Assembly (NCBI GenBank): GCA_951406725.2
Contig: OX597834.1
Location: 30,256,001 to 30,320,000, forward strand
Reading direction: 5' to 3'
Source of the DNA: Octopus vulgaris
Lineage: Eukaryota
Length of the DNA: 64,000 nucleotides
The translations under genes and the position numbers were made by a program. Shown piece by piece: positions 41,393 to 56,900 of the stretch. Under the pieces are notes generated by a model that saw only the letters and a list, made by a program, of their open reading frames with translations, made no database searches and was not told where the DNA came from. Position 1 is the first letter of the stretch; every line of letters starts with the position of its first letter.

Positions 41393-41437
41393 CTTCATGG
41401 TGTTGATTTTGACATCCCTGATAAGCTAACTTAAAAG
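41393..41437 (-). CDS. Candidate 45-nt symmetric phase-1 exon (FKLAYQGCQNQHHE), alternative C2 strand 1
   Basis: Acceptor tctgtatcactgctttcag, donor aag|gtatga; open in phase 1; FKLAYQGCQ parallels the canonical LEVRLVGCQ. Confidence 0.68.
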
Positions 41438-43635
41438 CTGAAAGCAGTGATACAGATAAGAATCTATTTAAGTATTTTATGTATATATCTGTGCGTGTAT
41501 ATAAATATATACATCAACTCCAGTAACAAAACACGAAGATATATATTATATTATATATTACTGAGGGGGGCTTCAAACTGTAAAATTGTTTGTTTGTTTG
41601 TATGTTTGGTGTCTGTATTAAGAAGATACAAGAGAGTATCACTCAATACATTCAAACAGCGCCAACAAGAAGAAAAAGAAAAGAAAACAACAAAGAAACG
41701 AAAAGAACCAAAATAACGACATTATTCTCTCCTCAATATGCTGTTAATTCTATTGGAAAGCTATATATACATATATATATACACACATATATATATATAT
41801 ATATATGTATATATATATATAAATAAATAAATAAATAAATATATGTATATTACATATATACATGCACACAATAACATCATTTAATAAAGGATTTATAGGT
41901 GAGCTACTATACTTTTCATGTTCAGCAGTACAGTAATTGGACAGGTTTGAAATATTTTGAACCTAAACAATTGCAGAGTAGCACACGGCAAGTTATACAA
42001 GCCCATCCAAAATCTGTACCATCCAACCATGAAACTTACAGTAGATCACAGTTAAATCCCACGTTTATTAAATGAAACTTATCTTTCGCTGGATGAGGTA
42101 CTTCCTTTGTTGAACTGACCAACAATGGAACAGTCTGCTATACATATATATATTTGGCAAAAGCTGATGATTCACTCTGTTGCTTAGTCAAGAGTCCTCT
42201 TCTATATGAGATCGTCCAAGATTATTCGAAATCCATCACCTGACTGAAAGATCACACATAGTAATGGAGTAAATCATCAGTTTTTTTTCTTCTTCTTTTG
42301 TACTCTTACATGGGTTGAGTACTCTTTCTTTTGTACCTCCAGACGTGTGTGTATATGTATATGAACCATCATTCACGAGTACAACTTAGTAGCATATACC
42401 ATGCTTTCTTTAATTGCTTTAGGTGCCTGTGAAGTCACAAGCAGACACAGACTACCTCCTGGCCCCCTCATCCTTGATCCAGGATGAAACAGCCGGAGGA
42501 GAGGAGAGCTGCACCAGTATATGACTGGCACTCATTTACAGCTGAGTAGACTGGAGTAATGTGAAATGAAGTGTCTTGCTTAAGGGCACAATATGTTTCC
42601 CAGTCAAAGAATTGAACTCATGGCCTTATGATCATGAGGTCAACACCGTAACCACTGGATCATGTACTTTTACATATACACACACACATAAATATGCATG
42701 TATGTATATTGCTAAGGTACAAACAAGTATATATATATATATATGTATATATATATGTGTGTGTGTGTGTGTGTGTGTGTGTGTGCGTATATATATATAT
42801 ATATATATATATATATATATATATATATATATATACACACACACATGCACACCTGCCTGCGCACACACACATACCCCCCCCGCAGAGAGTGTTTCTTCCC
42901 TCAGATTCATCATTATCAACTTGAATCTCATCAATATCAGCCTCAAAGTTATCATCATTGCCTACAATTTCTTTACGTTCAGTGTGCATTACAATGCTGT
43001 CTGTCTCAGTTTCCTCATCATCATCAAACATGTCATCACTGTATGTTGGAAATTTTTTCTTTTTTAATTAATAATTAATTAACATCATTGATTAATTATC
43101 ACAGAATAGCAAAACAATGTAAACATGAAAAAAAGGAGGCAGTTCCCTGCTATCCTTTCATTTGTTAAAAAAAAAAAAAAAAAAAGGCAAGCTGGCAGAA
43201 ACGTTAGCACACCGGGCGAAAATGCTTAGAGGTATTTCGCCTGCCGCTATGTTCTGAGTTCAAATTCCGCCGAGGCCGACTTTGCCTTTCATCCTTTCTA
43301 GCTCGATTAAATAAGTACCAGTTACGCACTGGGGTCGATATAATCGACTTAATCCGTGTGTCTGTCCTTGTTTGTTCCCTCTGTGTTTAGCCCCTTGTGG
43401 GCAGTAAAGAAATATATAATAAGTCTCAGAGCCAATCATTGATATGGTTGGGGTTTACCTACAAAAAGCCAGTGTTTAGTCATGGCCAATCCTATGTTAC
43501 CTTAAGCAAAACAACAAACAGGAGAAATAGTATAGTAGAAGACATTTGCCCTAGATGCCACACAGTGGAACTGATACTGGAGCCGTGTGGTTGGAAAGTT
43601 AACTTCTTACCACACCTGCACATATATAGTATAGG

Positions 43636-44060
43636 CACATAAGAAAACCATCCGAACATGGCTGTATAACGCATCGACTGGCCTCCGTGCTGTGGGCACG
43701 TAACAAACACCATCCGATTGTGGCCGTGCCAGCCTCGCCTGGCCTCCGTGCTGGTGGCACGTAAAAAACACCATCCGAGCATGGCCGTTCGCCAGCCTCG
43801 TCTGGCACCTGTGTCGGTGGCACATAAAAAAAACACCATCCGAGCGTGGCCGTTCGCCAGCCTCGTCTGGCACCTGTGTCGGTGGCACATAAAAAGCACC
43901 CACCACACTCACGGAGTGGTTGGTGTTAGGAAGGGCATCCAGCCATAGAAACACTGCCAGATCTGACTGGCCTGGTGCAGCCTTCGGGCTTCCCAGACCC
44001 TAGTTGAACCGTCCAACCCATGCTAGCATGGAAAGCAGAAGTTAAACAATGATGATGATG
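43636..44060 (+). mobile_element. Retroposon family C with (GAT)n tail and internal 55-60-bp tandem units, representative copy
   Basis: ggagtggttggcgttaggaagggcatccagc...catgctagcatggaaagc...(gat)n; copies at about 2171-2323, 2737-3122, 10204-10397, 15541-15733, 15902-16092, 26128-26356, 59081-59305. Confidence 0.9.
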
Positions 44061-53692: not shown

Positions 53693-53831
53693 GAGAGAGA
53701 GAGAGAGAGAGAGAGAGAGAGAGAGAGAGAGAGAGAGAGAGAGAGAGAGAGAGAGAGAGAGAGAGAGAGAGAGAGAGAGAGAGAGAGAGAGAGAGAGAGA
53801 GAGAGAGAGAGAGAGAGAGAGAGAGAGAGAG
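53693..53831. repeat. Long pure (GA)n microsatellite
   Basis: About 140 nt uninterrupted; other (GA)n runs at 49486-49530, 49755-49813, 50005-50050. Confidence 0.98.
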
Positions 53832-56699
53832 ATTGGTTGATGCTTCAATATATAAACAGACCCAAAGGTTCACTCTGGAACATTTTTAAATCATAGGCTG
53901 GTTCAACCAGGATTCGATTACTCATCTTCATCAAATGATCTCAAGAAGGCAATCAAGCCAAAGCTTCAAAGTCAGTCGACTTTTCCCTTGTATGCTTGAA
54001 ATACGCATGAAATACACACACACACACTTATACATACACACCTGTACACATACATACGCATTACACACACATGCATATACTCCTCTACTTATCTCCTTTG
54101 GATAATTGAGGTCTAGTTCTGTATACATATACACATACATACAGTCACACACACACATACACACTCTCAGTCACATACAATTGTCTCTGCTCTCCAGAAC
54201 CCACCAGCTTACAACCCATCTTTCTTTCTTTCTCTCATACAAATATTTTCCACTCTGATTCATGCTAACTCTCACTGTCATTAACCTACTAATTATAGTC
54301 GTTATTTTTGTCACCCCATATCAAAAAGAGAAAAGCCTGGAAGGCACGCCACGACAGACAGCCTTGAACAATATAGTAAACCGTACGATCTTATATCAAA
54401 AGAGCTGCTTTTGCAGCCACGTGGTCTTGGGTTCAGTCCCACTCTGCAGAACCTTGGGGGGGAAGGTCTGCTTATAGAGAACCAGGCTGACCAATGCCTT
54501 GTGAGTGAATTTCATAGGTGGAAACTGAAAGAAGCTTATTGTGTATATATACATATGTGTGTGTATTTGTTCCAGCCTTTGCTTGACAATCGATGATGGT
54601 TTGTTTACATCCCTTAGCAGTTCAGCAAAACAGACTGACTGAATGAGTACCAGGTTTGTAAGAAGTACTGGGGTCAGTCAGTTGAACTGGAACCATCAAG
54701 GTGGTGCTCCAGCATGGCTGCAATTCAATAACTGAAAGAAGTAAAAGATAAATGGTGTGTGTGTGTGTATGTACATGTATGTATGTAAGTGTGTGTGTGT
54801 GCATATATAAGCATGTAGTGCTCACTTTATCTTACAGCACATCAACATAGAGTTCAGTTTTTACATTTTATCATTAATATATTTCCAACACTGATTCAGG
54901 TCAAAAGAGGCAATCGCTGACCCTAACACATTCTAGTGACCATTCTAACTTACCACAACGATTGATAATTGCTACAGTTAGTCACTCATCACTCTAAACA
55001 GATAACAAATAATGACCAGCCATAAATAAATAATAACAACTGTAATTATGTCAGCCAAAAATACCAACATCAAAAGCCCTTACATGATATGATCTCCCTC
55101 TCAGCCTTTTATCACCAACTTCTAAACCTCTCCATTTTCACTTTGTAAAACCTAATTTTCTAAGATTCAAATTCATTAAATAGTTCTAAGAACTTTAACT
55201 GCCCTTCAGTATTAGTTACACACATGTACCCGTTCACTTTAATATATTCTCCACCTCCCACTGCAAATGGCTGGACAACCAGCAAGTAGCAGAATGGGAT
55301 TGATCCATAGCATTCATTTAAATATTTCATCTTCATGCTGATGTGCCATAGACCAAAATCTCCATGTCAGTCCCGTGTGTGACATGTGATACCCAGGACA
55401 TATTTCCCTGGCATCCATGTACCATCATATAAGGGGCCGTCTTAAGACATGAGCACACTGGGCTGTTGTCTGGAGGCCTCACGGATTTAGGGCCCCAATT
55501 CTGATCTATGTATCCTGCAATCAATAAACACCACATCGCTCAGTGCATTGATTTCCTTGGGGGGGGGGGGGTATGATGCTGCTAAGATGTCTCTCATCGT
55601 ATATGAGACATGCTTCCCAATTATTTTTTTCTCAACCACCAGATTAAATTTGGGACTTAAAAAGGGAAAGCTTCATTTTACTTAGAACGTATGAAGCAAG
55701 GCCTAACTAAAAGACTGAAAACAATCACGGATGTTTGGGACAAGCTTATGGAAAATGCTTTGGTCAGTCAGGAAGTTAAGAAAACAAAGCAAAACAAAAG
55801 TGGAGTCTTAAATTTCTCTTCGCACTTCCTCTACATCCGCCTGGTTACCATATTTGAAGGCATCTGAGATATAATTTTCCTCCAAAAGAATGTCTCAAAA
55901 ACGTCCCCTTTGGGTTCAATATACAAACATGCTTTAAGGCACTAAAGACTTTTTTTATCCCTGAGTATATGTTCCTGAAATTGGGGCAGATCAAATATGC
56001 CCATGTGTCCTTTGTGCCATCAAATGCGATATACACCATTCCCCCAGCAGCAGCAGCAGTGGTGGTGGTGGTGGTAGAAGTGGGTGGCTTTGTGCTTACT
56101 CTATGCACGTGTGGTCTCGTCCATCAACAGACGTTCAAACACATGCATCCTCCCATACAGTTTATCTTTACTATTAAAGCAACACTTTTTTTTTTCAGCT
56201 GTTGTTATTTTTTGTTGCCATATTAACACTTCTCTAACATCCTGCCACTCATCCCGAACCATGACTTTGGAGGCCTTTTTTTTTTTACTTGTTTTGGGAT
56301 GGGGAGGGATGCTTCTTCCAGAGCAAACACAGCCTATAATTAAAGTTAATTATACCAAGCTAGCTAGCTAGCACAAGCAGCATTAATTAAATCTAATTAC
56401 AGACAGATAACTATTCTTTTAATATATATATATATAACCCCTAAAATTAGCCTCCTTCACCAGTCTTGCTAGGCACTGAATATTTTACTGACATCCTCTA
56501 TTTATCTGTCATATCAGATGTTGTCCAACTCCTATGGAAGTGCCTGAACAGACTCCGATGAACTTGTGGAACGGCGAGAGCTTCATTGCCTGCAGCCACA
56601 GCCTTTATAAAGTCATGTAATGCAGATCATGTTCAGTTATCGAATGCTCAGAATGTATCATGGTTGGTTTGCTGGGGACTGGAGACCACTGAACAAGCA

Positions 56700-56900
56700 G
56701 AAACCTCATCCCTGTGTGAACGTACCGGCCGCCTCGGACACTCGGCGAAGAGCACCCTCGGTGGAACCATGCAGGCCGAAATGACCGAGAGGTGGACGCG
56801 CTACTACGGCAACGCGAACGGTGACGCCCGACGACGCGCAATAGTTTAGCAGTTCTAGGCAGCTTATCATTTAAGCTGATTAAGATATGACTTTAGAATG
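56700..56900 (-). promoter_or_regulatory. CpG-dense non-repeat patch, candidate internal promoter/first exon
   Basis: About 20 CpG counted by eye in 56721-56840, in an otherwise AT-rich, CpG-poor intron; no resemblance to the repeat families in the window. Confidence 0.45.
56726..56870 (-). CDS. Candidate alternative first coding exon (MISCLELLNYCASSGVTVRVAVVARPPLGHFGLHGSTEGALRRVSEAA), phase 1
   Basis: ATG directly after an in-frame TAA, 145 nt open to donor ccg|gtacgt, lying in a CpG-dense patch; could instead be a 5' UTR exon. Confidence 0.45.

Follow-up and report, generated by a model that had tools for sequence, protein, structure and literature searches.

The minus strand of the 64,000-nucleotide (nt) stretch of Octopus vulgaris DNA analysed here (the window; positions 30256001-30320000 of contig C21 in genome G000) carries the gene for the protein kinase PKN2. 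O. sinensis isoform X5 could be placed on the window over residues 198-900, each exon in turn, with a single substitution away from the splice joints, and at this residue the window encodes Ile, as the O. vulgaris records do. Thus, the gene is Octopus PKN2. The architecture of the PKN/PRK kinases was found by Pfam in protein records P0016, P0022 and P0030 (three HR1 repeats, Pkinase and Pkinase_C). A C2 fold was recognised by structure comparison (best Z 8.4, root-mean-square deviation 2.6, 88 aligned); the top Foldseek row for this domain is the C2 domain of PKC-epsilon, but with an E value of 0.012. Annotated proteins and assembled contigs showed that the loop between strands 1 and 2 of this C2 domain is the site of combinatorial splicing in the full-length kinase.

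In the intron that interrupts this loop, a preliminary description of the window had noticed four segments, regarded as non-repetitive and as having good GT-AG sites, and had assembled them into an alternative N-terminus of a PKN without HR1 repeats. The coordinates, translations, GT donors, phase-1 ends and stop-free join of the four segments were all as described. AG acceptors are present on the segments of 81, 33 and 45 nt, each of which has one match in the 2.8-Gb genome G000 and is an exon in annotated Octopus proteins. The description of the sites and copy number therefore holds for these three. It fails for the segment at 56726-56870, which has AA in place of the acceptor and is a multi-copy piece of 18S ribosomal DNA (rDNA; see below).

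A search with the strand-2 exon returned 11 cephalopod proteins, and further cluster members were added (15 of the 17 in the largest cluster were listed), giving a tally of 31 cephalopod PKN2 records from which P0032, a kinase-only fragment, was left out. Any of the cassettes is present in 15 of the 31, and LVGCQ of exon 58808-58974 and HR1 sequence are retained in all 15, the HR1 stretches having been verified by Pfam (three each) in the three records named above. Included and skipped forms are both annotated, and lengths of 81, 33 and 45 nt preserve the reading frame, as is characteristic of cassette exons; the 33-nt exon is always accompanied by the 45-nt exon. The 81- and 33-nt exons are known from annotation, their peptides being identical between O. 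sinensis and O. bimaculoides records, and the contig evidence given below concerns the 45-nt exon. In addition, an internal donor at 58892 takes out 84 nt, or 28 residues including six Lys/Arg and eight Ser/Thr. The two donors and three cassettes generate eight annotated Octopus versions of the loop, with 24, 39, 50, 52, 77, 78, 79 and 105 residues. Cassette inclusion after exon 58808-58974, which the preliminary description had offered as a fallback while overlooking donor 58892, is thus borne out by records and contigs. The cassettes do not, as had been supposed, replace a loop of about 50 residues but are added behind the canonical strand within the same chain. Frame compatibility by itself is weak evidence for an exon here, as the intron holds 15 symmetric stop-free AG..GT candidates, of which two are annotated exons; the 81-nt exon was missed by this filter. 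The features are collected in Table 1.

Table 1. Features of the PKN2 C2 region in the window (positions are those of the window; records are the 31 cephalopod PKN2 records).
Feature	Position	Strand	Remarks
Constitutive exon	59642..59862	-	C2 strand 1, first half (TLEV-R, phase 2), preceded by the end of HR1c
Exon with long donor	58808..58974	-	Carries LVGCQ (second half of strand 1) plus the C2 loop; 58808 is the long donor
Short form of the same exon	58892..58974	-	83 nt; internal donor CAG/GTGAGA
18S rRNA gene fragment	56716..56844	-	Gene-sense; in no annotated isoform
81-nt cassette exon	48990..49070	-	Acidic, 27 codons; 8/31 records, Octopus only
33-nt cassette exon	46143..46175	-	Two Cys; 10/31 records, Octopus only
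45-nt cassette exon	41393..41437	-	Resembles C2 strand 1; 14/31 records, one of them cuttlefish-like; spliced in 3/4 runs
Constitutive exon	34108..34217	-	Opens C2 strand 2 (DVMAVMKLD); phase-1 acceptor common to all variants

Assembled contigs of four sequencing runs were inspected over positions 41365-41485. The runs carry no tissue label and none is recorded as RNA, yet exon joints occur in the contigs, and splicing is therefore shown regardless. Contigs from runs X2, X8 and X14, which belong to three studies, cover the 45-nt exon and nothing of its flanks, and at their loose ends they run into the start of exon 34217 in one direction and into the sequence just before donor 58892 in the other. 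In X8 and X14 single contigs span both joints (58892 to 41437 and 41393 to 34217), and in X2 the depth of the internal-donor contig is 75.6 compared with 76.7 for the 45-nt exon. As judged by the loose-end letters of the contigs in three of the four runs, the predicted junction 41393-34217 exists. Since the 45-nt exon is joined both to donor 58892 and to 34217, this junction sits in an mRNA with the canonical exon, which is, via donor 58892, the sole upstream partner recorded for it. Run X1 gave no contig on the 45-nt exon, which is no proof of absence. Contigs lose rare forms and cannot reveal transcript starts.

The segment at 56726-56870, proposed as the first exon of the shortened kinase, proved to be derived mostly from 18S rDNA. 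The interval 56716-56844 matches 39 other places in the genome with 84–91% identity (40 scored of 90 candidates), and two matching loci that were fetched carry a whole 18S rRNA gene across the match (Rfam RF01960). The identity to the 18S sequence in these loci (L004 and L005, full RF01960 matches) is 87% over 132 columns, the rest of the window remaining unaligned; the fragment thus corresponds to an internal piece of small-subunit rRNA lying in a non-rDNA context. Of the 145 nt of the proposed exon, 119 belong to this fragment, and the CpG richness and the GT donor are native 18S sequence. The peptide occurs in 0/31 cephalopod PKN2 records; a protein search with it (48 residues, longer proteins; 0/23 candidates scored) adds weak evidence. 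The multi-copy 18S identity and the record count speak against this segment as an alternative first exon. As the proposed first exon is a stray rDNA piece, the HR1-less C2-kinase that was thought to start from an internal promoter at 56870 is left unsupported, and the recorded upstream partner of the 45-nt exon is the canonical one.

Other rDNA was seen in the same genome. An rDNA array with a spacing of ~18.4 kb lies on contig C20 at 23.94-24.08 Mb (L005-L007). The 18S match in the array spans 2650 nt, compared with 1831 for the model, and therefore contains large GC-rich expansions. Many dispersed 18S fragments are present on other contigs, and one of ~330 nt (L003) lies in AT-rich DNA.

The last segment of the preliminary description, the 45-nt exon, encodes FKLAYQGCQ, which was held to parallel LEVRLVGCQ of canonical strand 1. 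As a fact of sequence this resemblance is real. Over the nine residues, the BLOSUM scores against LEVRLVGCQ are 18 for the octopus cassette and 20 for a cuttlefish-like one, with chance probabilities of 0.0014 and 0.0006, respectively, in a post hoc comparison with 200,000 random 15-mers; 0 of 5944 other 9-mers in six PKNs reach these scores. As far as a post hoc test can tell, the insert is therefore strand-like and in register with strand 1. The cuttlefish-like exon is found in P0030, a transcript-derived protein on three contigs that matches the cuttlefish record P0011 around the cassette site and carries at the same joint a 15-residue insert with LRLVYYGCQ; forms that skip the insert (P0012, P0029 and P0031) are on 4, 24 and 1 contigs, respectively. 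Six of the 15 residues are common to the octopus and cuttlefish-like exons, including L, Y, G, C and Q. A second GCQ or GVQ strand-1 motif was found in none of the 178 records parsed out of 183 non-cephalopod records (mostly molluscs, insects and mammals), and no cassette-like segment was seen in 58 representative hits to a query made of the cuttlefish-like cassette and strand 2. Being present in octopus and a cuttlefish-like species and in 0/178 records elsewhere, the 45-nt exon looks coleoid-specific and conserved; among the records compared, it is restricted to cephalopods. The octopus and cuttlefish lineages split ~270–300 million years ago.

The likeness is incomplete. The cassette lacks a Leu or Ile two residues past GCQ, which 62 of 62 parsed canonical strands have (ten patterns listed), and it carries Tyr and Gln/Tyr at the positions of canonical Leu and Val/Met. 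At the nucleotide level, the cassette and the canonical mRNA share an identical run of 8 nt at GCQ and 11 of 27 nt overall. The phases also differ, the canonical strand being split by a phase-2 intron and the cassette being phase 1-1. With this phase mismatch and 11/27 DNA identity, a simple exon duplication as the origin of the cassette is unsupported.

In the AlphaFold model of full-length P0016, the canonical strand is at residues 317-324, residues 328-363 have a predicted local distance difference test score (pLDDT) below 50, and the cassette is coil. When the canonical strand was removed, the C2 body was predicted with confidence (blocks 78-91) and the cassette was still coil; the structural matches of this strand-less model begin past their first strand, and one of the 50 listed reaches the first 13 residues of the cassette. 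Because the alignments place loop residues under the cassette, the undocked cassette is mild evidence against docking. Of the remodelled C2 domain in which the cassette was to serve as strand 1, the sequence resemblance stands, but structure prediction left the cassette undocked, with alignments that themselves leaned against docking.

Taken together, these data are best read as loop tuning of full-length PKN2: splicing probably retunes lipid sensitivity, autoinhibition and phosphoregulation through the C2 domain, with the canonical strand predicted to remain where it is. The loop between strands 1 and 2 faces the membrane in C2 domains of the PKN C2 topology. Three optional phase-1 exons are, in combination with two alternative donors, spliced into this loop after the first C2 strand, the short donor dropping the basic, Ser/Thr-rich 28-mer and the cassettes adding neutral or acidic residues. 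Since basic residues are lost and neutral or acidic ones gained, the net charge of the loop falls, from +1 to between -2 and -8 across the versions (as obtained from charge and Ser/Thr counts). A lower charge may weaken the attraction to acidic lipids, and use of the short donor may remove candidate phosphorylation sites. In that case, the conserved hydrophobic-x-hydrophobic-x-Y-x-GCQ motif would serve in binding or packing at the surface of the domain and not as a core strand. Binding of acidic lipids by the PKN C2 domain is described (PMC10956426, PMC7925014), and phosphorylation is reported to increase the lipid affinity of the C2 domain of an Aplysia novel PKC (cited in PMC5632675).

Several observations weigh against loop tuning. 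It leaves unexplained why the conserved residues match strand 1, with GCQ after alternating hydrophobics. The first half of strand 1 is missing in three O. bimaculoides cassette records, likely owing to an assembly gap. The quality of the full-length model is low (mean pLDDT 58, predicted template modelling score 0.29), with the canonical strand itself at ~51–56, and both AlphaFold runs are biased in favour of this reading, as in the alignments the conserved columns hold the canonical strand and the cassette is matched with loop residues. Furthermore, no experimental structure of a PKN C2 domain was found, and none is among the 60 structure matches listed.

The conserved motif is better accounted for if the 45-nt exon supplies a spare strand 1 and LEVRLVGCQ is pushed out of the sandwich of the full-length kinase, so that the canonical strand and the loop become a linker of 30–60 residues that loosens HR1c from C2. 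Such an exchange is favoured by the resemblance, in register and found in two lineages (BLOSUM 18 and 20), by the residues shared between them, by the identical 8-nt run at GCQ (11 of 27 nt overall) and by a spacing from cassette to strand 2 that would give a short loop; the Piccolo C2A splice insert provides a precedent (PMC2241867, PMC1808492). However, AlphaFold leaves the cassette undocked even with the slot empty, and the sequence departs from a canonical strand after GCQ and at the positions of Leu and Val/Met; strand exchange is accordingly judged unlikely. Conservation of a strand mimic would likewise follow if a minor promoter elsewhere in the intron produced an HR1-less C2-kinase with the 45-nt exon as its sole strand 1, use as a cassette being a by-product. 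One O. bimaculoides model is indeed HR1-less (P0028, 598 residues), but it starts at a Met inside strand 2 and contains no cassette residue. The X2 contig breaks just upstream of the 45-nt exon, which indicates a second, weaker path there, and annotated alternative starts further upstream drop HR1a (P0013 and P0015). As contigs lose rare variants, they cannot prove the absence of an HR1-less transcript. Against this origin, the first exon that had been named is rDNA, HR1 is missing in 0/14 records with the 45-nt exon, the cassette is in none of the 58 representative hits mentioned above, and in X2 the depths of the internal-donor contig and the exon are nearly equal. The C2 domain of rat PKN1 is, moreover, described as soluble only with HR1 attached (PMC10956426). 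A kinase of this kind is thus very unlikely.

It is also conceivable that the splicing is tolerated noise, i.e. that the loop takes any insert, that the 81- and 33-nt segments are young, functionless exonisations in Octopus, and that the GCQ match is a coincidence. Loop lengths range from 24 to 105 residues, the model has low confidence there, these two exons are in Octopus records only, and the resemblance statistic is post hoc. The 45-nt exon, however, is in frame, has residues conserved in octopus and a cuttlefish-like species and is well covered in three studies, and the 81- and 33-nt exons encode peptides that do not differ between the records of two Octopus species. As a whole this explanation appears highly improbable; judged by the sequences compared, noise would be a better fit for the 81- and 33-nt exons, confined to Octopus records, than for the 45-nt exon.

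Comparable systems are known. The splice insert of Piccolo C2A is said to displace a core strand. A nine-residue insert rearranges this domain (Garcia et al. 2004 as cited in PMC2241867 and PMC1808492), and, as in PKN2, its long and short variants differ by a short insert spliced in frame into a C2 domain. The difference is that the rearrangement is solved in Piccolo, whereas in PKN2 it is a hypothesis that AlphaFold does not support. In dysferlin C2Av1, the first strand is reportedly replaced through an alternative first exon. Dysferlin C2A and C2Av1 (PDB 4iqh and 4ihb), spliced versions of one C2 domain with reported differences in lipid-binding behaviour (PMC3898210), are closest to the idea of the preliminary description. 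In contrast, PKN2 has both strand-like segments within the same chain, and an alternative first exon was not found. Neural microexons dependent on eMIC/Srrm are described as having UGC near the acceptor and a long AG-exclusion zone (PMC8797185). The PKN2 cassettes are likewise short and frame-preserving, and TGC is located at -22/-15 for the 33-nt exon and at -9 for the 45-nt exon, but at neither the 81-nt exon nor the two flanking acceptors. From the motifs near these two acceptors, neural inclusion of the cassettes may be guessed. The AG-exclusion zones of these cassettes, in contrast, are not long (45 and 24 nt, compared with 97 and 57 for the flanking exons) and do not fit the eMIC code.

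Variation at this loop was also observed outside cephalopods. Its distal part (37 residues) is missing in stick-insect and mammalian PKN records that are named as minor isoforms (P0088-P0090, P0114-P0143), which suggests that alternative donors may recur at this PKN loop. At the same exon joint, a brachiopod-like record and a land snail record (P0042 and P0066) have inserts of 4 and ~9 residues, which are possibly independent microexons or annotation errors.

Octopus annotations include at least four N-termini, with exons upstream of the window (P0002-P0027). The start lies past HR1a in P0013 and P0015 and within HR1b in P0002, P0020 and P0025. The true case of internal starts in the PKN2 gene may lie in such isoforms, in which the first Rho-binding repeat is absent. 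The exon matching 59642-59862 is missing from all four O. bimaculoides models (P0005, P0006, P0008 and P0027), likely because of an assembly gap.

Within the intron, a fifth phase-1 candidate at ~42872-43030 was rejected, being repeat-derived and in none of the annotated loops compared. An acidic open frame at 42870-43130 on the minus strand, initially considered as a first exon, ends at a phase-1 GT, has 13 other matches in the genome and is likely transposon-derived; two of the matches lie on contig C10 in inverted orientation, ~1.2 kb apart, with 68–69% identity. A near-perfect inverted repeat at ~37040-37250, seen by eye, has arms of ~65 nt and an internal duplication and resembles a miniature inverted-repeat transposable element. 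Further CpG-rich patches at 10951-11150, 43601-43900 and 50951-51200 are probably repeat-derived.

PKN2/PRK2 annotations of O. sinensis (XP_036367851-63) and O. vulgaris (CAI9738443-50) already contain the three cassettes and the two donors, uninterpreted, and the exons are therefore no discovery in themselves. A literature search found no paper on these PKN2 exons. A study quantifying tissue-specific exons in O. bimaculoides (bioRxiv 10.64898/2026.09.05.749416) has a main text without the term PKN, and its supplements may list them. What apparently has gone unremarked is that an exon which is conserved across octopus and a cuttlefish-like species and, among the records compared, restricted to cephalopods resembles the strand just upstream of it. 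As a lead, this conserved spare-strand exon is modest and testable. That the coleoid 45-nt exon, when spliced in, takes the strand-1 slot and ejects the canonical strand, so that part of the C2 core becomes a flexible linker, and that this swap has been kept since the octopus-cuttlefish split, is a doubtful proposition. If it were true, one microexon would uncouple the Rho-binding HR1 arm from the lipid-binding C2 domain, a rare and directly testable case of a microexon rewiring a domain core that would provide a handle on HR1-C2 coupling in PKN. If splicing only tunes the loop, Octopus PKN2 would be another case of splicing in the regulatory loop of a signalling kinase.

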